DNA from: Clostridia bacterium
GTDB lineage: Bacteria; Bacillota; Clostridia; Oscillospirales; CAG-272
Length of the DNA: 64,000 nucleotides
Reading direction: 5' to 3'
Assembly (NCBI GenBank): GCA_017453255.1
Contig: JAFTKN010000006.1
Location: 45,856-109,855, forward strand
A program made the translations under genes and the position numbers. A model generated the notes under the pieces. That model was not told where the DNA came from, did no database searches, and was given only the letters and a program-made list of their open reading frames with translations. Below are positions 8,535 through 64,000 of the stretch, piece after piece. How positions within the stretch are numbered: position 1 is the first letter of the stretch; every line of letters begins with the position of its first letter.

Positions 8535-9407
8535 TTATCTTCCCTCCTTGGCAAGTGAAATTAGATATTGACCATAATCTGTCATCTTTAATTTCTCGCC
8601 TAAGCTAAGTAATTGTTCCGTGGAAATGAAGCCTCGTCTCCAAGCAATTTCCTCTATACAAGAAACATAAAAGCCCTGACAATCTTGAACAGTTTTTACA
8701 AACTCAGATGCCTTTAGCATGCCCTCAGGTGTTCCTGTATCGAGCCACGCCATACCACGGCCTAAAAGTGCTACATTTAATTCGCCCATTTCAAGATACG
8801 CATTGTTTACAGCTGTAATCTCTATTTCACCACGTGCTGAGGGCTTTATATTCTTTGCAATTTCTACAACTCTATTGTCATAGAAATAAAGTCCTGGTAC
8901 AGCATAATTTGACTTTGGATTTTCTGGCTTTTCCTCTATTGAAAGAACCTTATGGTTTTTATCAAACTCTACAACGCCAAAGGCTCTTGGATCTTTAACA
9001 GGATATCCAAAAATTGTCGCCCCTGTGTCATTTTTTATCGCATCTCTTAGAATCTTTGTAAGATTAGGACCATAAAAAACATTATCGCCAAGAATCAAAC
9101 AAACGCTATCATTTCCTATAAAATCTTCCCCTAAAATAAACGCATCAGCAAGTCCTCTTGGTGACTCCTGAACCTTATATGTAAGATTAATTCCTATTTC
9201 CTCGCCTGTGCCTAATAGTTGCTTATAAACAGGTGTATCCTCAGGGGTGGAAATAATCAAAATATCCTTTATTCCTGCAAGAAGCAAGATTGAAAGCGGA
9301 TAATATACAAGTGGCTTATCATAAATTGGCAAAAGCTGTTTTGACACCGCCTTTGTCATTGGGTAAAGCCTTGTACCCTTTCCACCTGCTAAAATAATGC
9401 CCTTCAT
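8535..9407 (-). CDS. rfbA: Glucose-1-phosphate thymidylyltransferase
   Basis: 290 aa. [18 protein letters not shown] and the overall RmlA pattern. Confidence 0.92.
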
Positions 9408-9419
9408 TTGTTTTCTCCT

Positions 9420-10520
9420 TTATTCAAGAATAATGTCGCAGATTCTATCTACAATTTCCTCTGTCAAATCTGCAAAGAGTGGCAGAGTTAAAACTCTTTG
9501 TGCTATATGCTTAGCAACAGGGGTCTTGTCCTCTCCTGCTGTTTCTAAATCCTTATAGCAATCAAAACCATTTATTAAGGGATAAAAATATTTTCTTGCT
9601 ATTATATCATGAGGTTTTAGCTTGTCAAAAATCTCATCTCGTGTATATTTATATCCATCAAAAACTACGGGAAAGTATGCGTAATTTGGCAAAACATCCT
9701 TTTGCTCAGGGCAAAGAATTATGCCCTCAGCACCGCTTAATCTTTCACGATATCTGCTGACAGCTTGTCCTCTTTTTGCTATTTCCTCATTAATATGTCT
9801 AAGGTTGCAAATTCCCATAGCAGCTTGAAACTCGTTCATTTTCGCATTTCCTGCTATGTATTTGCCTTCCTCTGGAGTATGCAATCCAAAGTTTTTAAGG
9901 TCATCAAGCACGCTTGCAAGGGAGCTATCCTTGTATGTTACTGCTCCACCCTCTATTGTGTTAAAAACCTTTGTTGCGTGGAAGCTAAACATAGATACAT
10001 CACCAAAATTGGCAGAGCTTATACCCTTGTATTTTACGCCAAAGGCGTGAGCAGAATCGTAAATAACCTTCAAGCTATGCTTTTTGGCTATTTGCTCGAT
10101 TTTTTCCACGTCGCACATATTTCCGTAAACGTGGACAGGCACAATTGCAACGGTATTTTCCGTGATAAGTGCTTCGATTTTATCTACATCTATTGTATAA
10201 TCCACCGAATTTATATCGCAGAATACAGGAACAAGTCCACATCTTGCAATTGCGTGAGTAGTTGAAGCAAAGGTAAAGGGTGTGGTTATTACCTCCTTAC
10301 CCCTCTCAAAGCCCATTGACTCAATTGCACCCTCAAGGGCAAGATGTCCGTTTGTATATAGAGTTATATTCGGCGTTGATAAATAATCTTTCAAATCTGC
10401 CTCGAGCTGCTTGTGCTTTTTTCCCATATTGGTCAGCCAACGGCTGTCCCAAAGCTCCTTTATTTCCTCGCAATACTCCTCATAGGAGGGCATTGACGAG
10501 CGTGTTACGTTTATTGACAT
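9420..10520 (-). CDS. DegT/DnrJ/EryC1-family PLP aminotransferase. Probably makes a dTDP-4-amino-4,6-dideoxyhexose (WecE/VioA-like); regiochemistry not determinable
   Basis: 366 aa of the DegT family (SFHATKVFNTIEGG with the lysine). It sits next to rfbA/rfbB, and no 3,4-ketoisomerase is seen in the locus. Confidence 0.8.
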   Translation of the reverse strand: MSINVTRSSMPSYEEYCEEIKELWDSRWLTNMGKKHKQLEADLKDYLSTPNITLYTNGHLALEGAIESMGFERGKEVITTPFTFASTTHAIARCGLVPVFCDINSVDYTIDVDKIEALITENTVAIVPVHVYGNMCDVEKIEQIAKKHSLKVIYDSAHAFGVKYKGISSANFGDVSMFSFHATKVFNTIEGGAVTYKDSSLASVLDDLKNFGLHTPEEGKYIAGNAKMNEFQAAMGICNLRHINEEIAKRGQAVSRYRERLSGAEGIILCPEQKDVLPNYAYFPVVFDGYKYTRDEIFDKLKPHDIIARKYFYPLINGFDCYKDLETAGEDKTPVAKHIAQRVLTLPLFADLTEEIVDRICDIILE

Positions 10521-36591: not shown

Positions 36592-38772
36592 TTAATTTGA
36601 ACTATATCCCCACTGTATTTCTCCAAAATAATTATAGTCATTAATCCAATACTCATCCCAATCAGCAGGCTTACTATCTATTTCGCAATAAATTGTGTTG
36701 TTAAAGCCCTTTAGTATAGCATACCCTATTTCAACTACACTCTTAGGAATTACTATTTCTGTAAGATTACAATATGCAAAAGCCCTTGAGCCAATTTTGT
36801 ATAAGCGACTGCTTAGCTTTATTTCCTTTAACCAAGTGCATCCTTCAAACGCACTTTCACCGATTTCTATAACGCTTTCAGGCAATATAACGCTTTCAAG
36901 ATTTTCACAATTATAAAACGCATTATTTCCTATGCTATAAAGCTTATTTCCAAAGACTACTGTTTTTATTTGGGTACAGCTTGCAAATGCACCGCCTTCA
37001 ATTTTAGTTACGTTGCTTCCTATGGTTACACTACTAATTCGACTATTTTGCTTAAAAGCGTCTTCACCTATTTTTGCAACAGGTATTTCGTTTATTATAT
37101 CGGGAATAATCAATTCTGTATTTGTACCATTATAGCCTATAACAACTGCATAATTATTTTCGTTAGTAGAAAACCAAATCAGTCCGTTTTCATTTCCAAA
37201 GCTTGAAACATCCCAGCAAACATTATTACTACCATTAAATTTTGGAGACCAATAATATGGGAATGATTTTGCCTGACAGAAAATATTTAATTTTCCTCCG
37301 TCCTTCCTAGAAAAAACATCCGTGCCCACAAAAACAACTGTATTTGGAATAAACACCATATCTAAGCTTGTTTTAGAAAAAGCACCATCAAAAATTTCAG
37401 CAACTGTTGGTAATATGTCTATGCTTTTTAATCTACTACAATTTGCAAAAGCATCATTTCCAATGCTTGTTATATTTAAAAGTGAAACGTTTCTAATTAA
37501 TTCGCAACCTTTGAATGCACCCTCTGGAATTATTTCTATTTTAGGTGGAAGGCTTACCTCAGTAATATCTGTGCCTGCAAAGGAATATCTACCTATACTA
37601 AGTAGCTTTGCAGGCAAATTCAAGCTTGTTATTGATGTACCTGAAAATGCATAGTCGCCTATTACCTTTAAGGTGTATGGAAGCTTGACATCATTTAGCT
37701 TTGTGCAGGACGAAAATGCCTCGTTGCCAATTGTAGTTATTCCATCCTCCATAACTACCTTTTTAAGCTCACTACAATAAGCAAACATACTTTCCCCTAT
37801 TACACTTATATTACTTGGAATAAAAATCTCCTCCAAGCTATAGCATCCCGAGAAAGCGCTCTCTCCAAGTGATGAAATCCCCTGTCCTAATGTTAAGCTT
37901 TTGAGTGAACTCATAGATGAAAATGCCTTTTTTTCTATTACAGTCACGCTATCTGGTATTGATATTTCTTCGACACTTGAACACATTGCAAATGCTTTTT
38001 CGCCGATTTCGGTTACGCCCGAGGTAAGCTTAACGGTTTTTAAATTTCTGCAATTATAGAACGCTTGTTTACCAATTTTCTTAATTTCTTTTGGTATTTC
38101 CACGCTTGTTAGTGTTAATATATTGTTAAATGCGTATTCGGCTATTTCTGTAACAGGCTTACCTCTATACGTTTTTGGAACAACAACCTCTTCAATAGAC
38201 GTATCAGCTAAAAGCAGAAGTCTATACTCGTTATCATTAATCTTTTCAAAGAAAAATGGCTGATATTCCGTTTTCGCATAAAAGGTTATATCACCTGTTG
38301 TACCACGGCTTATTTCTGTAATTTTTTCTGTATATTCTCTATCTGTGTACCAGCCTAAAAAGTCGGCACCGATTTCCACCGCGTCTTCTAAAAGAATTTC
38401 ATCCTCAATTGTATATGTAGTTGGATTATTTGTAGCAACACCTACATATTTGATTTTATATTCAATAGGAGTGTAGTTTGCTACAAATGTAGTATCTCCT
38501 GTTATTGTGTAACCATCAAAATACCAGTTTTTACCATCAACAAGCCAGCCATTAAAGATGTAGCCCTGCTTTTCGGGAGACTCTGGTTTTTCAACCTTGT
38601 CACCCTTATTTACCGCCACCTTTGTTACTTCACTTCCATTACAGCTATCAAAGTAGGCATAAAAGGATTCCTTTTCCTCTTCTTCTATTTGCTCACTATC
38701 TGAGCATGAGGCAAGGAAAATACATACAAAAATACATATTACTAATAATACTAATAAATTAATTTTTTTCAT
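36592..38772 (-). CDS. Surface lipoprotein with N-terminal Listeria-Bacteroides-type repeats and a long BspA-type leucine-rich-repeat region
   Basis: 726 aa. Lipobox FLASC after a signal peptide. GYIFNGWLVDG and FLGWYTD repeats. Many ~23-aa units of the form I..IG..AF..C..L..V.LP..v..I. Confidence 0.8.
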   Translation of the reverse strand: MKKINLLVLLVICIFVCIFLASCSDSEQIEEEEKESFYAYFDSCNGSEVTKVAVNKGDKVEKPESPEKQGYIFNGWLVDGKNWYFDGYTITGDTTFVANYTPIEYKIKYVGVATNNPTTYTIEDEILLEDAVEIGADFLGWYTDREYTEKITEISRGTTGDITFYAKTEYQPFFFEKINDNEYRLLLLADTSIEEVVVPKTYRGKPVTEIAEYAFNNILTLTSVEIPKEIKKIGKQAFYNCRNLKTVKLTSGVTEIGEKAFAMCSSVEEISIPDSVTVIEKKAFSSMSSLKSLTLGQGISSLGESAFSGCYSLEEIFIPSNISVIGESMFAYCSELKKVVMEDGITTIGNEAFSSCTKLNDVKLPYTLKVIGDYAFSGTSITSLNLPAKLLSIGRYSFAGTDITEVSLPPKIEIIPEGAFKGCELIRNVSLLNITSIGNDAFANCSRLKSIDILPTVAEIFDGAFSKTSLDMVFIPNTVVFVGTDVFSRKDGGKLNIFCQAKSFPYYWSPKFNGSNNVCWDVSSFGNENGLIWFSTNENNYAVVIGYNGTNTELIIPDIINEIPVAKIGEDAFKQNSRISSVTIGSNVTKIEGGAFASCTQIKTVVFGNKLYSIGNNAFYNCENLESVILPESVIEIGESAFEGCTWLKEIKLSSRLYKIGSRAFAYCNLTEIVIPKSVVEIGYAILKGFNNTIYCEIDSKPADWDEYWINDYNYFGEIQWGYSSN

Positions 38773-54580: not shown

Positions 54581-56086
54581 ATGGCAGTTTTGAAATGTAA
54601 AATGTGTGGTGCTCCACTCGAAGCAGTGGCTGGTGCCGAAATAATTGAATGTAAATATTGCTTAACTCAACAGACTATTGAGGGTGCAGTTGACCAAAGC
54701 AAGCCTATGATGTATGAAAGAGGCGAAATGCTTTTAAATGATGGCTACTTTGAAAAGGCTGAGGGCTATTTTGAAAAGGCTCTTGACTTAAACTATAAAA
54801 GCTCCGACGCTTATCTTGGACTTGAAATGGCAAGATGCAAGGTTAAAACCATAGAGGACTTAGCAAAGCATTATGCAAAATCAAATAAGGAAGAAAGCCC
54901 AGAGCTTCGTCACGCTAAGGAATTTGCTAAGGATAAGAGTTGGGTTGAGATTTTCGAAAGCACTTTAAATATGGAAACCGAAATTGTTCAAGCTAACCTT
55001 AATGACATTGATAATAGGCTATCTGTTTTTAGAAACAAGTCAAAAGCCGCAAAAAACCTCGTTGCAGTTTCTGGTGATTCTTATGCTATTATTAACATCT
55101 ACGGTGAAGTTGAGCAGTTTTATCGAAGAAAAGAGAGTATCAAATTAGACTGGAAAAATATTACTTCTATTTACCTAAGAGATGGGGTGCTATTTGGTAT
55201 TGATGAAAACGGAACAGTAAAATGTACCGACCAAGCAATACAAGAGAAAATATCATCTTGGACAGATATTGTCCAAATAACTACTGATTACCCTTTCTTA
55301 GCACTAAAAAAAGACGGAACAGTGATTGCATTCCCTTACGATAATAGTAAAATAACTTTTGATTTCTCCCATTTAAAAAATATCGTTCAAATCGAAACAT
55401 TATATGGTTGCACTATGGCTTTAACAAATGAAGGTAAGGTTATTCCGTTTGAAATAGAGCCCTCATTTGCCTCAAAAATAGCTACGTGGGAAAATATCTC
55501 AGAAATATTTCTTTCAAAAAACCTTAGTTTCGAAATAACTGTACATGCTATTACTAAATATGGCGAGTTTCTCCACGCAGGCGGCAGTACTCCTTCATTC
55601 TTTCCTAACAAAAACTGGCATGATTTTGTTTCTGGCACCAGCCAAAATGGTTGTTTCATACTCGTTAAATCCGATGGTACTACATGTGGTGCAGATTTCT
55701 ACACAACAAGACGTAATGCTAGTGCAAAAAATCTTGAAAATGTTTTAGCTGTTCTTGCTGAACAAAGCTATATTTTAGCAATACAAAACGATGGTAACGT
55801 AATTATAAAAGAACACTATGACACACAACCTTACTTGCCCACGTATGATGAAAAAATTTTTAATTGCATAGATACAATCAATGAAGATAGACAATTTGCA
55901 ATAAAAAAATTAGAAATTAAAAAAAGAAAACAAGAGGAAGAGGCTAAGCGTCAAGAAGAGCTTAAAAAGCAACAAGAATTAATTGCATCACGCAAAGCAA
56001 GTGGTGTTTGTCAGCATTGTGGTAGTAAATTTAAGGGATTATTTACTAAGGTGTGCTCCTCTTGTGGTAAGAAAAAGGATTATTAA
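54581..56086 (+). CDS. Hypothetical protein: N-terminal zinc ribbon, TPR-like segment, a repeat (possibly beta-propeller/RCC1-like) core, then a coiled coil and C-terminal zinc ribbon
   Basis: 501 aa. CKMCG...CKYC at the N-terminus and CQHCG...CSSCG at the C-terminus. Recurrent DGTV/NGTV/EGKV/DGNV motifs roughly every 40-50 aa. Confidence 0.55.
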   Translation: MAVLKCKMCGAPLEAVAGAEIIECKYCLTQQTIEGAVDQSKPMMYERGEMLLNDGYFEKAEGYFEKALDLNYKSSDAYLGLEMARCKVKTIEDLAKHYAKSNKEESPELRHAKEFAKDKSWVEIFESTLNMETEIVQANLNDIDNRLSVFRNKSKAAKNLVAVSGDSYAIINIYGEVEQFYRRKESIKLDWKNITSIYLRDGVLFGIDENGTVKCTDQAIQEKISSWTDIVQITTDYPFLALKKDGTVIAFPYDNSKITFDFSHLKNIVQIETLYGCTMALTNEGKVIPFEIEPSFASKIATWENISEIFLSKNLSFEITVHAITKYGEFLHAGGSTPSFFPNKNWHDFVSGTSQNGCFILVKSDGTTCGADFYTTRRNASAKNLENVLAVLAEQSYILAIQNDGNVIIKEHYDTQPYLPTYDEKIFNCIDTINEDRQFAIKKLEIKKRKQEEEAKRQEELKKQQELIASRKASGVCQHCGSKFKGLFTKVCSSCGKKKDY

Positions 56087-56092
56087 TAAAGA

Positions 56093-56124
56093 AACGGAAC
56101 AGCATTGGCTGTTCCGTTTTTTGT
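56093..56124 (+). terminator. Intrinsic terminator
   Basis: 11-bp stem AACGGAACAGC/GCTGTTCCGTT plus a T-run. Confidence 0.7.
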
Positions 56125-56263
56125 TTCAAAATAATTCAGGGTAGTTTAGCTTGTAGTAGAGTATTTTAAGGTCTGTTGGCAGATAGACGCAGGACAATGA
56201 CTTTGCAGGCATATACGCTATTTACAAATAGCTCTCTAATAATATTGTCTATATGTTCTTCCC

Positions 56264-57766
56264 TCAACATAGCTCTACCCTTTTTCCTTTCCTATGAATG
56301 TGCATATTATCTATTGATATTTTTACATTGGGATTATTCTCAAATAGCTTTTCTAAATTTAGTTGCTCCTCTGCGCCACCACATTCGCTTATATACAATG
56401 TTTGAAGATTTTCCATTTCGCAAATAGGTGACAAATCCTCTACCCTCTCCTTGTTAATATGAAGTGTCCTTATCGTCTCATTTCCCCTCAAAAATTCGAG
56501 AGAGTCAATACCTGTGTCATTCAAGTATAAAAGCCTTAATTCCTTAAGCTGATTTACAAAATCCAGATTAGTTGGCTTAAAGCCTGTTATCCACAAATCC
56601 TCTAATCTTTTATTCTCTTTAATGAAGGATATATCTGTAATATTGTTTGATTTTTCAAAGGTGGCACTTCTTACATTTTTTAACGTCTTAAGCTCACTAA
56701 TTTTGCTAATATCAATACCATGAAAATTGATTCTACCCTTTCTTGCCCCCTCCATTCTCCAGTCGAGCATATCTCTCTCACTTTGTGAATAGTTCTTAGC
56801 CATTTGCTTAGAAAAACGTCTTATTTGATTTCTTGCCTCCTGTGGCTCAAGAATTGTTGCCTTATCTCCATAATAAATAGCCCATCTCATCATTTGCTCA
56901 TAGCTAGCCTTTATTCTAATAACGGCTCTATTTTCCTTTTCGCCACTTACCCTAAATTTTTTTCCGAAGGTATCAATAAAGCTACCGATTAATTCATTTT
57001 CTATTGTTATTACAAAATCTATCGGCATTTGAGAAAAAAGTCCATTTGAATATATAAATTCATTTATGTCACCATTTGGTCTTTTTTTAGGCTGATTTGT
57101 CACCTTTATTAAAGTAATTTTATCAACCTGATACGCATCAAGCACTCCGCTATCGTCATTTCCTATTAAATAGTAGTGATTATTATAAATTACTAATTTT
57201 TGCGGGCTTGTCTCCACGTTTTTCACCTGATGAAGTAGTTTATCAAGTCCGTACTCATTTTGGGTGAATTTTACACGCTTGCCTTTTCCGATTGCTTCAT
57301 TTATTATTTGTATGCTTGAAAAAAGAGTGTCGTTTTCACTTTTATCAAAATAATCAAGCTCGACGGCATTTTTTGCATAGCTTTTAAAATGCTTGCTTGT
57401 TAAATTTGTGAGCTTCTCTATCAATGACCTCGAGCTTTTCTTATCAAGATATCGACTTGACAAAACGGAATCTATTAATAGATGTATCTCACTTTCTGTA
57501 AGGTCGTTTGAAAGTTGAGGATTAAAATATGCTCCCTTAGTTGTTTTAACAACACCAATTTCACTTGACTCAAGGTCGCTTAAATAATTGGAAATTGCCT
57601 TTCTCTCAAGGACTATTCCAAAATCTCTTTCGAGAATTCTTCCTATTTCCTCTTGAGTCAAAATAATTCCATCACTAATTTTTTCTGTTTTGCTTGGCCT
57701 TGTGTGCCTTTTTAAAATATGATAAATTCTTAAGCACGCCATTCTTTTAGTTTCATTAAATGCCAT
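56264..57766 (-). CDS. HTH-WYL-WCX-type transcriptional regulator fused to a C-terminal leucine-rich-repeat domain
   Basis: 500 aa. The first ~75 aa are a wHTH typical of Firmicute WYL regulators (RIYHILKRHT...LTQEEIGRILERDFGIVLERKAISNYLSDL). A WYL-like core spans aa ~160-225 (RVKFTQNEYG...SPQKLVIYNNHYYLIGNDDSG.LDAYQVDKI). WCX-like region (AVIRIKASYEQMMRWAIYYGDKATILEP). Aa ~345-485 (nt 56312-56734) are ~22-aa LRRs (NITDISFIKENKRLEDLWI, LDFVNQLKELRLLYL, IDSLEFLRGNETIRTLHI, VEDLSPICEMENLQTLYI). Confidence 0.7.
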   Translation of the reverse strand: MAFNETKRMACLRIYHILKRHTRPSKTEKISDGIILTQEEIGRILERDFGIVLERKAISNYLSDLESSEIGVVKTTKGAYFNPQLSNDLTESEIHLLIDSVLSSRYLDKKSSRSLIEKLTNLTSKHFKSYAKNAVELDYFDKSENDTLFSSIQIINEAIGKGKRVKFTQNEYGLDKLLHQVKNVETSPQKLVIYNNHYYLIGNDDSGVLDAYQVDKITLIKVTNQPKKRPNGDINEFIYSNGLFSQMPIDFVITIENELIGSFIDTFGKKFRVSGEKENRAVIRIKASYEQMMRWAIYYGDKATILEPQEARNQIRRFSKQMAKNYSQSERDMLDWRMEGARKGRINFHGIDISKISELKTLKNVRSATFEKSNNITDISFIKENKRLEDLWITGFKPTNLDFVNQLKELRLLYLNDTGIDSLEFLRGNETIRTLHINKERVEDLSPICEMENLQTLYISECGGAEEQLNLEKLFENNPNVKISIDNMHIHRKGKRVELC

Positions 57767-57795: not shown

Positions 57796-57824
57796 ATTAT
57801 ATCATTACATAACCCTTAACTCAA
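57796..57824 (-). promoter_or_regulatory. Sigma-A promoter (extended -10) of the WYL-LRR gene
   Basis: Minus strand TTGAGT (57819-57824), 17-nt spacer, TGaTATAAT (-10 at 57796-57801). Confidence 0.5.
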
Positions 57825-57832
57825 TTGGAATA

Positions 57833-57850
57833 TGTACCATAAATAGTACA
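57833..57850. promoter_or_regulatory. Palindromic candidate operator 1, TGTAC-N8-GTACA
   Basis: TGTACcataaataGTACA, 8 bp upstream of the -35 of the regulator promoter. Confidence 0.45.
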
Positions 57851-57901
57851 TTTATCGAACCCAACTGGTTTGATTGCTACAATTATTATAATCTTTTCAT
57901 A

Positions 57902-57918
57902 ATCCCAAAAAGCGTACA
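57902..57918. repeat. Left arm of a perfect 17-bp inverted repeat
   Basis: ATCCCAAAAAGCGTACA is the exact reverse complement of 58064-58080. Confidence 0.8.
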
Positions 57919-57946: not shown

Positions 57947-57977
57947 AAAAACCCGACATTTTTTGTGTTGGGTTTTT
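57947..57977. terminator. Bidirectional terminator-like hairpin inside the divergent intergenic region
   Basis: AAAAACCCGACA-loop-TGTGTTGGGTTTTT (one G-U pair). The GC core with its T-run (57951-57977) is flanked by direct repeats ATAAACAAAA (57941-57950 and 57978-57987). Confidence 0.45.
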
Positions 57978-57989
57978 ATAAACAAAATA

Positions 57990-58017
57990 TTGACTTTCAA
58001 ACATAACGGTTTATTGT
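57990..58017 (+). promoter_or_regulatory. Sigma-A promoter of the helicase-MoxR-vWA operon
   Basis: TTGACT (57990-57995), 16-nt spacer, TATTGT (58012-58017), leaving a ~160-nt leader to the ATG at 58185. Confidence 0.45.
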
Positions 58018-58032
58018 ACTAATTTTAGTACA
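58015..58032. promoter_or_regulatory. Palindromic candidate operator 2, TGTAC-N8-GTACA
   Basis: TGTACtaattttaGTACA overlaps the -10/+1 region of the operon promoter. Confidence 0.45.
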
Positions 58033-58063: not shown

Positions 58064-58080
58064 TGTACGCTTTTTGGGAT
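58064..58080. repeat. Right arm of the perfect 17-bp inverted repeat
   Basis: TGTACGCTTTTTGGGAT is the exact reverse complement of 57902-57918. Confidence 0.8.
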
Positions 58081-58184
58081 ATTAATGTGGATAAAATGAA
58101 AATACAAGATTGTTTCTAATGCAACATAAATAATGTGGGAATGTGATTTACAATGACATTTACCACTAAAAGGAGGTTAAAGCT

Positions 58185-61655: not shown

Positions 61656-62767
61656 AAAGCCTATCTATAAGTAACATTCCACAAATGTCAGTTGAAAAAA
61701 TGACCGATATATTATCAAGTATCTTCGTAAAAGCAATTAAGACGGGGGTGGAGCTAAAGGCTCTGCCCTCGATGATGCTATGGGGACCTCCTGGTGTTGG
61801 TAAATCACAGGCTATTAGACAGATTGCAAAACAAATTAATGAACAAACTAAAAAGCAAGTTAATGTCACTGACGTTAGACTTCTCCTTTTTAACCCTATT
61901 GATTTGCGTGGTATCCCAACTGCAAATGCTGATAAAACCCTTGCTGTTTGGCTTAAGCCACAAATTTTCCAAATGAATAGTAGCTCCGATATTATTAACA
62001 TTCTATTTCTTGATGAAATTTCGGCAGCTCCTATGTCGATACAGGCGGCGGCTTATCAAATCACTCTTGATAGAGTTGTTGGAGAGCATAAGCTACCCGA
62101 TAACTGTATAGTAATCGCTGCAGGAAACCGAGTTACTGACAAAAGCGTGGCTTATAAGATGCCTAAGGCACTTGCTAACCGACTTTGTCATATTGAAATA
62201 GAAAGCTCAAGCGATTCCTTTATGAAATGGGCAATTTTAAATAATCTTGATAAAAGAATTCTCGGTTTTCTTTCCTTCCGTAACGATTATCTTATGAGCT
62301 TTGATTCTACAAACGAGGATCTTGCCTTTGCAACCCCAAGAAGCTGGGAAATGGTTAGCAATATTTTAAAGCTACATGGCGGTAGCGTTACTGACTGTTA
62401 TCCCCTTGTTGCTGGCTGTATTGGTACTGGTATTGCAACAGAGCTTGAAAGCTTCTGCCGAATTTATAATAGCCTACCTAAGATTGAGGATATATTTATG
62501 GGCAAGCCTGTTTCTATGCCTAAAAGCGTTGACGTTATGTACGCTCTTATTTCCTCAATGGTTGCATATGCAAGAGAGCATAAAAATGATATAAAGCAAA
62601 TTACCAACTCAATTAATTTTGCCTTAGGTATGCCCTCTGACTTCTCTTGTGTATTGTTAAAGAACTACATGGCTATTGAGAAAAATTATATGAATACTCT
62701 TATGAAAATACCAGAATTCTTTACTTGGATGCAAAAGAAGGGAGCGCTACTTAATGGCTCTATCTGA
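61652..62767 (+). CDS. MoxR-like (AAA_5-type) AAA+ ATPase
   Basis: 371 aa. Walker A LWGPPGVGKSQ (near 61783-61806), Walker B ILFLDEIS (near 62002-62020), sensor region AAGNR. The ATGA overlaps the helicase stop. Confidence 0.8.
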   Translation: MKSLSISNIPQMSVEKMTDILSSIFVKAIKTGVELKALPSMMLWGPPGVGKSQAIRQIAKQINEQTKKQVNVTDVRLLLFNPIDLRGIPTANADKTLAVWLKPQIFQMNSSSDIINILFLDEISAAPMSIQAAAYQITLDRVVGEHKLPDNCIVIAAGNRVTDKSVAYKMPKALANRLCHIEIESSSDSFMKWAILNNLDKRILGFLSFRNDYLMSFDSTNEDLAFATPRSWEMVSNILKLHGGSVTDCYPLVAGCIGTGIATELESFCRIYNSLPKIEDIFMGKPVSMPKSVDVMYALISSMVAYAREHKNDIKQITNSINFALGMPSDFSCVLLKNYMAIEKNYMNTLMKIPEFFTWMQKKGALLNGSI

Positions 62768-64000
62768 AAATGATTTGCGTAAATATTCTCAAAGACTCCT
62801 TACCTCAAAGACAAGAATTTTAATAAAGCATGGCTTTTATGGTCTTTTGCTTATGCATATGAAATTTGCTATTGATGAAGAATGTGAAACTGCCTATACT
62901 GACGGATATAAAATCGCATTTTCACCGAGCTTTATGGATGATTTAAGTGACAAGGAGCTTGATTTCGTTTTGATGCACGAGATTTTGCACGTTGTTTTAC
63001 AGCACTGCATTAGAGGTAAGAATTTACAACAATCCAGATATAATATTGCCTGTGATATAGTTGTAAACTCAAATATTCTTGCCTCTAACAACTTTGACCG
63101 TAAGTCAATTACTCTACAAAAGCATGGTGAGGCTATGCACATAGCTCCAGACAACAAGGAAGGATATTTATATACTGCTGAGGAGGTATATAAGATGCTT
63201 CCTGATGACAAGAAAATAAATCCCAGCTCCAAAGGAAGTAGCTCTATGGGTGACAGCGATGACGATAATCAGGACAAGGGTAGTGGTGGATATGGCTTGG
63301 GCAGAGCTAAAAAGAAGCTTGGTAGATATAAAGAGGGCTTTGACTCCCACGATAAGTGGCCACAGCTTGAGGAAGCAGATGCTTTACTAAGAGATGTTTG
63401 GATAAAACGGCTTAGAGATGCAGAAACGACTATAACCATACTTGAGCGCCAAAATGGTCGTGGTACAATTCCTGCTTGTGCAAAAAGGCTACTTAACGAG
63501 CTTAAAAAGCCTAAGCTTAACTGGAGAGTTATGCTTAATGATTTTGTTCAGACTGAGATAAACGACTATTCCTTCTCTCCCCCTGACAGACGCTTTAGCG
63601 AAAGTGACTTCTTTTTACCCGACTTTAACGACAGTGACGAAAAGATTGAAAATGTGTTATTTATGATTGACTCCTCTGGCTCAATGTCTGATGACGATAT
63701 AACAAATGCTTATTCGGAGCTTTATGGTGCAATTTCGCAGTTTGATGGAAAAATATCGGGCTATGTTGGATTTTTCGACGCAGCTATATATGAGCCCCTA
63801 CCCTTTTATAAGGTGAATGATATCTTATCTATAAAGCCAATAGGTGGTGGAGGAACGGATTTTCAAATTGTATTTGAATATGTTCATAAGCATATGGCTT
63901 CCAATCCACCCTCTTGCATAATTATTTTAACTGATGGAGATGCGCCCTATCCTCAACCGAGTGTTGCTATGGGTATTCCTGTTTTGTGGGTGATTAATAA
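62754..64000 (+). CDS. Two-domain protein with an N-terminal putative zincin metallopeptidase (HExxH) and a C-terminal vWA domain (DUF2201-like architecture); the 3' end lies beyond the window
   Basis: Hand-translated with no stop to the window end, so it is not in the ORF track. HEILH at 62976-62990, an S/D/G-rich linker, and the MIDAS motif DSSGS at 63669-63683. It overlaps the upstream gene by 14 nt. Confidence 0.75.
   Translation, partial: MALSENDLRKYSQRLLTSKTRILIKHGFYGLLLMHMKFAIDEECETAYTDGYKIAFSPSFMDDLSDKELDFVLMHEILHVVLQHCIRGKNLQQSRYNIACDIVVNSNILASNNFDRKSITLQKHGEAMHIAPDNKEGYLYTAEEVYKMLPDDKKINPSSKGSSSMGDSDDDNQDKGSGGYGLGRAKKKLGRYKEGFDSHDKWPQLEEADALLRDVWIKRLRDAETTITILERQNGRGTIPACAKRLLNELKKPKLNWRVMLNDFVQTEINDYSFSPPDRRFSESDFFLPDFNDSDEKIENVLFMIDSSGSMSDDDITNAYSELYGAISQFDGKISGYVGFFDAAIYEPLPFYKVNDILSIKPIGGGGTDFQIVFEYVHKHMASNPPSCIIILTDGDAPYPQPSVAMGIPVLWVIN

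Follow-up and report, generated by a model that had tools for sequence, protein, structure and literature searches.

Within the 64,000-nucleotide stretch of Clostridia bacterium contig JAFTKN010000006.1 analysed here (the window), a single open reading frame (ORF) with an ATG start, preceded by an AAGGAG ribosome-binding site 7 nt upstream, encodes a 500-aa protein that joins the winged helix-turn-helix (wHTH), WYL and WCX domains of a transcriptional regulator to a C-terminal domain of leucine-rich repeats (LRRs). The gene is transcribed divergently from an operon for a helicase, a MoxR-type ATPase, a DUF2201 protein and a PP-loop protein, with an intergenic region of 418 bp between them (Table 1). 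We consider here how this architecture is built, how widely it occurs and what an LRR might be doing on a WYL regulator.

Domain architecture of the WYL-LRR protein

All four domains named in the preliminary description of this locus were recovered by profile searches, AlphaFold2 and Foldseek. The PADLOC WYL model PDLC01652 matches aa 144-323 at 2e-21; Pfam places WYL (8.6e-4, 19.7 bits) and WCX (7.3e-5, 23.5 bits) slightly below their cut-offs of 21.8 and 23.9, and LRR_4 above its own (28.6 vs 27 bits), and its helix-turn-helix (HTH) models do not detect the wHTH. In the AlphaFold2 model, built from 35 homologues, three helices and a two-stranded wing form the wHTH at aa 7-81, followed by linker helices (91-135), the β-barrel of WYL (148-226), the WCX domain (249-326) and a helix (330-342) that is continuous across the WCX-LRR junction and runs on into the LRR solenoid. 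The mean predicted local distance difference test score (pLDDT) is 86.9, and reaches 94-97 in the LRR blocks. Foldseek searches of the PDB align aa 1-~340 to DriD (8tp8, 2e-11), PafBC, BrxR and CapW over 340-354 columns, the wHTH included, and superpose the LRR tail on InlB with a root-mean-square deviation of 2.2-2.5 Å.

The repeats, put earlier at 'at least five', are real, and the count is now six 22-aa units (345-476) with a capping β-hairpin: β-strands recur in the model every 22 residues between 345 and 460 (at 345, 367, 390, 412, 434 and 456) before the hairpin cap. By PDB sequence search aa 353-462 match the LRR of a Chlorobium Roco protein (5il7, 2.9e-14) and InlB (~1e-9), and the family profile reaches 5il7 at 4e-72. 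In the core, the WYL motif reads H-Y-Y-L at 197-200, of which Y198-Y199-L200 are near-invariant across the family; P308, in the WCX domain before its C-terminal helix, is invariant in every alignment, and the junction residues Y326 and D332 are conserved across the fusion clade described below. Among close homologues the linker bundle is the most conserved part (86-92% identity).

An intracellular location for the LRR, also proposed earlier, is upheld by the lack of any transmembrane segment or signal peptide in the protein (maximum 19-residue Kyte-Doolittle hydropathy 1.06), and the ORF at 36592-38772 is indeed, as described, a BspA-type LRR_5 protein (1.2e-159) with a lipoprotein-like leader. 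Scans with Pfam, NCBIfam and PADLOC found no NACHT/NB-ARC-type P-loop NTPase in the WYL-LRR protein, and NCBIfam internalin models score only 22-27 bits against cut-offs above 1000. A secreted internalin-like protein was considered and ruled out: the N-terminal domain is a wHTH, and a leader is lacking.

Table 1. Features of the WYL-LRR locus, in window coordinates
Feature	Coordinates	Strand	Evidence or remark
Complete wHTH-WYL-WCX-LRR gene	56264..57766	-	Protein MBQ7352574.1, database name "WYL domain-containing protein [Clostridia bacterium]"
wHTH	57512..57754	-	AlphaFold2 helices 7-21, 38-49, 55-67, strands 72-74, 79-81; full-length Foldseek alignment to DriD, PafBC, BrxR, CapW
Three-helix linker bundle, aa ~88-140	57347..57505	-	AlphaFold2 helices 91-103, 109-120, 125-135
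WYL (Sm-like) domain, aa ~148-228	57083..57325	-	PADLOC WYL, Pfam WYL, DriD profile match 3.8e-15, residue counts
WCX (ferredoxin-like dimerisation) domain, aa ~246-328	56783..57031	-	Pfam WCX; profile alignment to DriD/PafC WCX
Junction helix, aa 329-344, WCX C-terminal helix to LRR	56735..56782	-	AlphaFold2 helix 330-342; apparent recombination breakpoint here
Six 22-residue internalin-type LRRs, aa 345-480	56327..56734	-	Pfam, PDB, Foldseek, repeat register and entropy
C-terminal cap (β-hairpins, aa 481-500) and stop codon	56264..56326	-	AlphaFold2 strands 482-485, 488-493, 496-499
Strain-variable segment (LRR-coding 3' end and spacer)	56122..56756		No DNA similarity to sister strain L003; flanks 88-99% identical (blastn)
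Best sigma-70-like promoter for the regulator, TTGAGT-17-TATAAT with TG, 10/12	57796..57824	-	Consensus match only
Operator-like perfect palindrome TGTACCATAAATAGTACA	57833..57850		Upstream of the regulator, 67 bp from its ATG and 9 bp from its best -35
Operator-like imperfect site TATCCCAAAAAGCGTACA	57901..57918		Inverted repeat I2, 100% complementary to 58064-58080
Strong hairpin, 13-bp stem, between operator pairs	57947..57977		-16.3 kcal/mol; z = -4.8 (+ strand), z = -3.1 (- strand)
Operator-like perfect palindrome TGTACTAATTTTAGTACA	58015..58032		Overlaps -10 of promoter-like TTGACT-16-TATTGT facing the helicase operon
Operator-like imperfect site TGTACGCTTTTTGGGATA	58064..58081		Inverted-repeat and orthologue comparison
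Presumed regulated gene 1: DarB-like SNF2/DEAD helicase, 1156 aa	58185..61655	+	Pfam Helicase_C, ResIII, SNF2-rel; phrog_10089 'DarB-like antirestriction' 3.8e-241
Presumed regulated gene 2: MoxR-type AAA+ ATPase (N4 gp24-like), 371 aa	61652..62767	+	Pfam AAA, AAA_3; phrog_1297 9.5e-94
Presumed regulated gene 3: DUF2201_N/DUF2201 (metallopeptidase-like and VWA-like), cut by window end	62754..64000	+	phrog_1314 2.7e-80

The core finds its best structural matches in DriD of Caulobacter and PafBC of actinobacteria (8tp8 and 9fnd, both 2e-11), activators that sense single-stranded DNA (ssDNA) with the same wHTH-WYL-WCX core in the same domain order; DriD (3.8e-15) and PafC (1.9e-10) are also the only solved WYL regulators that the family profile reaches. 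However, identity to them is only ~15%, they have no LRR or any other domain past WCX, and they serve a DNA-damage regulon where the window protein presumably serves a phage-type operon. BrxR and CapW belong to the same class and fold (7qfz 4.7e-6, 9c5g 1e-5, 7t8k 3.4e-5), and the window locus appears to share their logic, in which a regulator adjoins the module under its control and the promoter region holds a palindromic operator (PMC9122601, PMC11662680), a candidate one in the window. Their RWHVR motif is nevertheless absent from the window protein, in which this strand reads N-H-Y-Y-L-I-G, and they adjoin BREX, CBASS and other defence systems, none of which the window operon matches as a whole; the C-terminal LRR is again extra.

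The LRR itself has the 22-residue length and the consensus LxxLxLxxNxIxDxSxLxxLxx of InlB, InlA and the Chlorobium Roco protein. The Roco LRR is intracellular like that of the window protein, which nonetheless has no Roc GTPase or COR domain; internalins, on the other hand, carry a signal peptide and an LPXTG/cell-wall anchor, both missing here, where the LRR sits on a DNA-binding regulator. A variable LRR recognition surface joined to an output domain is also the plan of eukaryotic NLRs (including the transcription regulators CIITA and NLRC5, whose output is transcriptional) and of the bacterial NLR-like STAND proteins. In our protein, by contrast, the output would be a fused bacterial wHTH with no NACHT/NB-ARC/STAND NTPase, and nothing but the generic LRR fold speaks for homology.

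Is the WYL pocket of this protein still equipped for nucleic acids? The ssDNA-pocket residues are Y168, R176, R178, Y192, R204 and R207 in DriD and S144, R164, R168 and R184 in CapW (PMC9186387, PMC11662680), and DriD R207, R204, Y168 and Y192 contact or position the ssDNA (PMC9186387). The WYL-motif Tyr of the window family aligns with that of DriD and PafBC, as does its motif [YFW]-R-x-D-[RK]-[IM], which corresponds to W206-R207-L-D-R-M of DriD. The Arg equivalent to R207 is near-invariant, being present in 59 of 71 fusion-clade and 41 of 45 LRR-less proteins, but the window protein has Gln (Q213) in its place, as do the three homologues closest to it. Further equivalents in the window protein are D210 for R204, Q169 for Y168 and V184 for R178, with only Y192 kept (Y199), in an alignment to DriD at ~15% identity in which the R207 equivalence alone is secure. 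The loss of the conserved basic and aromatic pocket residues, the Y192 equivalent excepted, suggests that the nucleic-acid pocket may be altered or weakened in this subclade.

A clade of WYL-LRR fusions and its history

The identical 500-aa protein occurs on 7 contigs, from several samples and independent assemblies, so the fusion is not an assembly artefact. Homologues at 64-73% identity, together with ~66 further clusters at 23-35%, keep the same continuous architecture, and the helix through the junction is unbroken in the AlphaFold2 model: the possibility raised in the preliminary description, that a frameshift, a sequencing error or a chimeric assembly has joined two genes, is thereby reduced to practically nothing.

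Nor is the architecture rare, as had been implied. An exhaustive HMMER scan of 1.84 billion representatives gave 8,052 matches, and in 73 of the 186 proteins taken for inspection the core is followed by a C-terminal LRR, which corresponds to at least 66 further clusters at 50% identity. Of 71 fusion proteins, 66 have a Pfam match to WYL, 63 to LRR_4 and 50 to WCX. They come in two size classes, one of ~500 aa and one of 580-790 aa. In the long forms the LRR is followed by another HTH-type domain (Sigma70_r4, Sigma70_r4_2, FtsK_gamma or HTH_12), and proteins with this wHTH-WYL-WCX-LRR-HTH order include P0011, P0012, P0019, P0042, P0044, P0046 and P0047.

As the preliminary description had supposed, full-text literature searches returned no paper on a WYL + LRR architecture. 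The published survey of WYL architectures covers only those with at least 100 sequences (PMC6789036), and database entries label these proteins merely "WYL domain-containing protein". The WYL-LRR clade is real and sizeable, and we found no description of it in the literature.

In a neighbour-joining tree of the core alone, computed without support values from a sample that the search itself had enriched for fusions, the LRR-bearing proteins form one large clade apart from the ordinary ~330-aa WYL regulators, with a few LRR-less proteins nested repeatedly inside it. This pattern suggests one old fusion followed by repeated losses of the LRR as the simplest history. One such LRR-less group (P0005-P0010) is sister to the window protein at 41-53% identity, its members ending right after WCX.

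Close relatives of the window protein come from metagenome-assembled genomes (MAGs) of herbivore-gut Clostridia, and species-representative genomes yielded only LRR-less relatives, from goat and roe-deer gut Clostridia MAGs. A phage- or plasmid-borne fusion was considered and rejected: in 50,697 records of phages and 72,556 of plasmids, tblastn matched only the WYL core (query aa ~1-336), and no match runs on into the LRR. A fold search of BFVD found no viral protein with the WYL-LRR architecture, narrow pattern scans of IMG/VR found nothing relevant, and scans of JGI metagenomes found no LRR-fused homologue.

Operator-like sites and the divergent operon

The TGTAC-N8-GTACA sites singled out in the preliminary description are present: the motif occurs twice in the 64 kb, against 0.01 matches expected, and both copies (57833-57850 and 58015-58032) lie within the 418-bp intergenic region, 182 bp apart from centre to centre. 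A second element, TGTACGCTTTTTGGGAT, forms an exact 17-nt inverted pair at 57902-57918 and 58064-80; the motif of the site at 57901..57918 recurs as TGTACNNTTTTTGGGAT in loci L005 and L006, and as a close variant in that of P0004. The palindrome itself lies upstream of the orthologous regulators P0004 (at -83) and P0010 (at -201) and, with one mismatch, upstream of P0008 and of orthologues in two goat or roe-deer MAGs. It is conserved down to 41% protein identity and is missing only where the promoter region has been deleted.

In this class of regulators, class A of the WYL survey (PMC6789036), dimeric wHTHs occupy a ~20-bp palindrome, a ligand bound in the crevice between WYL and WCX shifts the wHTHs, and the WCX C-terminal helices cross to form the dimer interface in solved relatives (PMC11662680, PMC6789036, PMC9186387); the sites of DriD overlap the -35 position (PMC13004042). 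Judged from sequence, the layout of the window sites fits this published behaviour. As for the sign of regulation, the evidence points both ways: the core is closer by profile and fold to the activators DriD and PafBC and lacks the repressors' RWHVR motif; on the other hand, one predicted site overlaps a -10-like element, as in repressors.

Midway through the divergent promoter region, the hairpin at 57947-57977 is followed by a U-run, which makes it terminator-like on the + strand. Neither the hairpin nor the long intergenic region has an Rfam match.

Of the presumed target genes, that for the MoxR ATPase encodes a protein 48% identical to gp566 of Bacillus phage G and annotated 'N4 gp24-like' in N4-type phages, and the PP-loop (GMP_synt_C) gene comes next on the full contig, past the window end (phrog_11956, 5.7e-139). 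The divergent linkage of WYL regulator and helicase is kept in loci L001, L002 and L007-L010, and the LRR-less relatives P0008 and P0010 have the same operon arrangement. More broadly, the four-gene block (SNF2 helicase, MoxR, DUF2201 and PP-loop; L001 2568-9582) stands beside WYL regulators in several Clostridia lineages, and all four of its genes have strong PHROG matches.

With PADLOC the SNF2 protein gave only generic helicase-domain matches (DrmD, 1.4e-14 over ~100 aa), the AAA protein a P-loop-only match, and the DUF2201 and PP-loop proteins none, so that no system was matched as a whole; nor did a search of the literature turn up any paper about these four genes together. The block may be a defence or anti-defence module that has yet to be characterised. 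Beyond the window, the island has at its far end a gene for a PvuRts1I-like/SRA protein (modified-cytosine-dependent restriction; L001 1-51), which hints at a defence-island neighbourhood.

More distant members of the fusion clade have other neighbours: RtcB, a pentapeptide/DUF7663/LRR_5 cluster, a MoxR-DUF58-BatA cluster or a mini-DnaE-like gene. These neighbourhoods are unrelated, and the LRR is therefore not tied to one type of operon. Stand-alone ~340-aa proteins with a DNA_pol3_alpha (DnaE) Pfam match are encoded near two WYL-LRR genes (L001 761-1783, L013 1234-2250), but the two share just a short motif (E 1e-4) and are probably not a conserved partner; 187-aa neighbours, also considered as partners, are unrelated. 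Two WYL-LRR genes that are unrelated to each other each have, immediately downstream, a gene for a BspA-type LRR_5 protein of 190-232 aa (L021 1881-2579, L024 4337-4909), which may be coincidence or a recurrent partnership. Finally, in the genome that carries the WYL-LRR protein P0043, a separate and ordinary WYL-WCX regulator lies directly upstream of SbcD-SbcC in an apparent operon (L022 1196-6116).

LRR variability and the possible role of the LRR

Within the clade, the scaffold of the LRR is conserved (~1.2-2.0 bits), and the x positions of the β-strands, which line the concave face, come close to the maximum of variability (3.3-3.5 bits). The fold is kept in 71 members at 23-35% identity. 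The architecture is conserved, and the LRR fold is under selection.

A comparison of near-identical strains adds a second kind of variation. Between the window protein and its sister allele P0002, encoded at locus L003, the core is 89% identical (synonymous divergence, pS, 0.37) and the LRR only 43% (pS 0.84, saturated), with blastn similarity between the loci ending at window position 56756, at the junction. The P0002 LRR groups with those of P0003 and P0004 (70-72%), in line with their core distance. As it is the window's LRR that departs from this pattern, and as similarity is lost at the junction, these sequences point to replacement of the window LRR as a cassette, probably by recombination there. 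Its donor was not found in the sampled data, where the best LRR matches are P0002-P0004 at 43-45%. Mutagenesis by a diversity-generating retroelement was considered as the source of variability and set aside, given ~55% protein divergence, saturated synonymous sites and no reverse transcriptase in the gene tables of the loci.

In the L003 strain the island (L003 7240-7937, 8001-9413; L004) is decaying: the helicase survives as fragments of 107 and 113 aa, the promoter and operator region is deleted, and the P0002 gene starts ~30 codons late at a TTG. At its opposite end the block is flanked by a tyrosine integrase.

The gene that converges on the WYL-LRR gene in the window (54581-56086, + strand) encodes a zinc-ribbon / TPR / β-propeller / coiled-coil / zinc-ribbon protein, whose sister-strain version (L003 10417-11940) has a clear RCC1_2 propeller in its middle (3.8e-40). 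The ~1-kb middle of the window gene (54948-55921) has no DNA similarity to L003, although both gene ends are 96-99% identical; it forms, back-to-back with the LRR, a second cassette that varies between strains. Between the two genes L003 carries an extra ORF of 243 aa with no family match (9395-10126), where the window has only a 178-bp spacer, which is further evidence of a recombination or insertion hot spot.

The analysis establishes the architecture, fold, clade, operon linkage, operator conservation, LRR divergence and pocket-residue loss; that the protein binds DNA, dimerises and is allosterically coupled, and what kind of ligand it has, we infer. The protein would be a cytoplasmic, probably homodimeric wHTH-WYL-WCX regulator, whose wHTHs most likely bind the four TGTAC-N8-GTACA-type sites of the intergenic region and so would control both its own promoter and the helicase-MoxR-DUF2201-PP-loop operon. 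The LRR is joined to the core by a helix that prolongs the C-terminal helix of WCX, a dimer-interface element in solved relatives, and occupation of its concave face would alter the geometry of WCX and linker, hence operator binding. This input would complement the sensing of nucleic acids in the WYL pocket or, in this subclade, take its place in part. We put the probability of such a reading, a WYL-class regulator of the adjacent operon in which the LRR is a variable protein-binding input that modulates operator binding, at roughly 0.5. The idea first proposed, that the LRR recognises a macromolecule, for instance a protein of a phage, and links this recognition to transcription, is plausible and agrees with the variable concave face, the replacement of the LRR cassette and the loss of the ssDNA-contacting Arg.

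Several points weigh against this reading. The predicted template modelling score (pTM) of the AlphaFold2 model is 0.54, with no confident LRR-core contact, so the relative placement of LRR and core is undefined. The promoter calls are consensus matches, and their number in the region is not above shuffle expectation. Given its PHROG matches, the tyrosine integrase at its flank and the lack of any PADLOC system, the presumed target appears to be a phage-type or mobile-element module and not a recognised defence system; and the unrelated contexts of other clade members leave no common target or trigger evident. The LRR is dispensable for basic regulation, since it has been lost repeatedly with the same operon and operator kept (P0005-P0010). 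P0002 has an intact LRR even though deletions have removed the promoter, the N-terminus and the helicase at its locus. Relaxed constraint, moreover, would likewise lead to a highly variable surface and to turnover of the cassette.

Perhaps, then, the LRR serves for self-association or tethering, bridging dimers on separated operators (by looping or cooperative repression) or docking on a constant cellular or operon-encoded partner. LRR-bearing loci are multi-site (four sites in the window, two in L005) and the LRR-less orthologous loci examined show one, albeit in a very small sample; the LRR emerges beside the WCX dimer interface, and the additional HTH that long forms carry after the LRR hints at a part in architecture or in the bridging of DNA. 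However, a constant partner or a self-interface predicts a conserved surface, and it is the concave-face positions that vary most; the whole cassette, too, differs between near-identical strains. We regard tethering as a possible but less likely account.

Could the LRR instead be a neutral or decaying appendage, an old accretion that is often lost whilst the core alone regulates? The LRR-less members nested repeatedly in the fusion clade would fit, as would the closest LRR-less relatives beside the same type of operon and the very high divergence of the LRR. Yet the frame is intact, and 63 of 71 members, at 23-35% identity, retain canonical scaffold residues; the junction motif (Y326, D332), too, is conserved, and the LRR is modelled with confidence (pLDDT 94-97); furthermore, saturated synonymous divergence next to an 89% identical core argues for a swap for another functional cassette rather than decay in place. 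Such an appendage is, to our minds, quite improbable.

The protein-binding reading can be carried further, to an 'LRR-gated transcription factor'. An exchangeable, hypervariable intracellular LRR would directly recognise a foreign protein, from a phage or mobile element, and switch the WYL regulator; in the window subclade it would replace ssDNA sensing by the degenerate pocket (R to Q) and control a phage-derived helicase-MoxR-VWA module. In this full form we think the proposal rather unlikely. If true, it would parallel, within a single polypeptide, the LRR-based sensing of innate immunity, with transcription as the output; if the LRR is merely structural, the finding shrinks to an unannotated domain architecture.

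WYL regulators are emerging as the main switches that control the transcription of defence and DNA-damage modules in bacteria; their established inputs have so far been only nucleic acids or nucleotides in the WYL pocket. The LRR is a classic protein-recognition scaffold of innate immunity, and the clade would be a rare case of a bacterial DNA-binding factor equipped with one. With a defined candidate operator and target operon, and with natural LRR-less sister proteins as controls, the system is a tractable one. An intracellular LRR on so large a clade would add a protein-recognition input to the WYL class.

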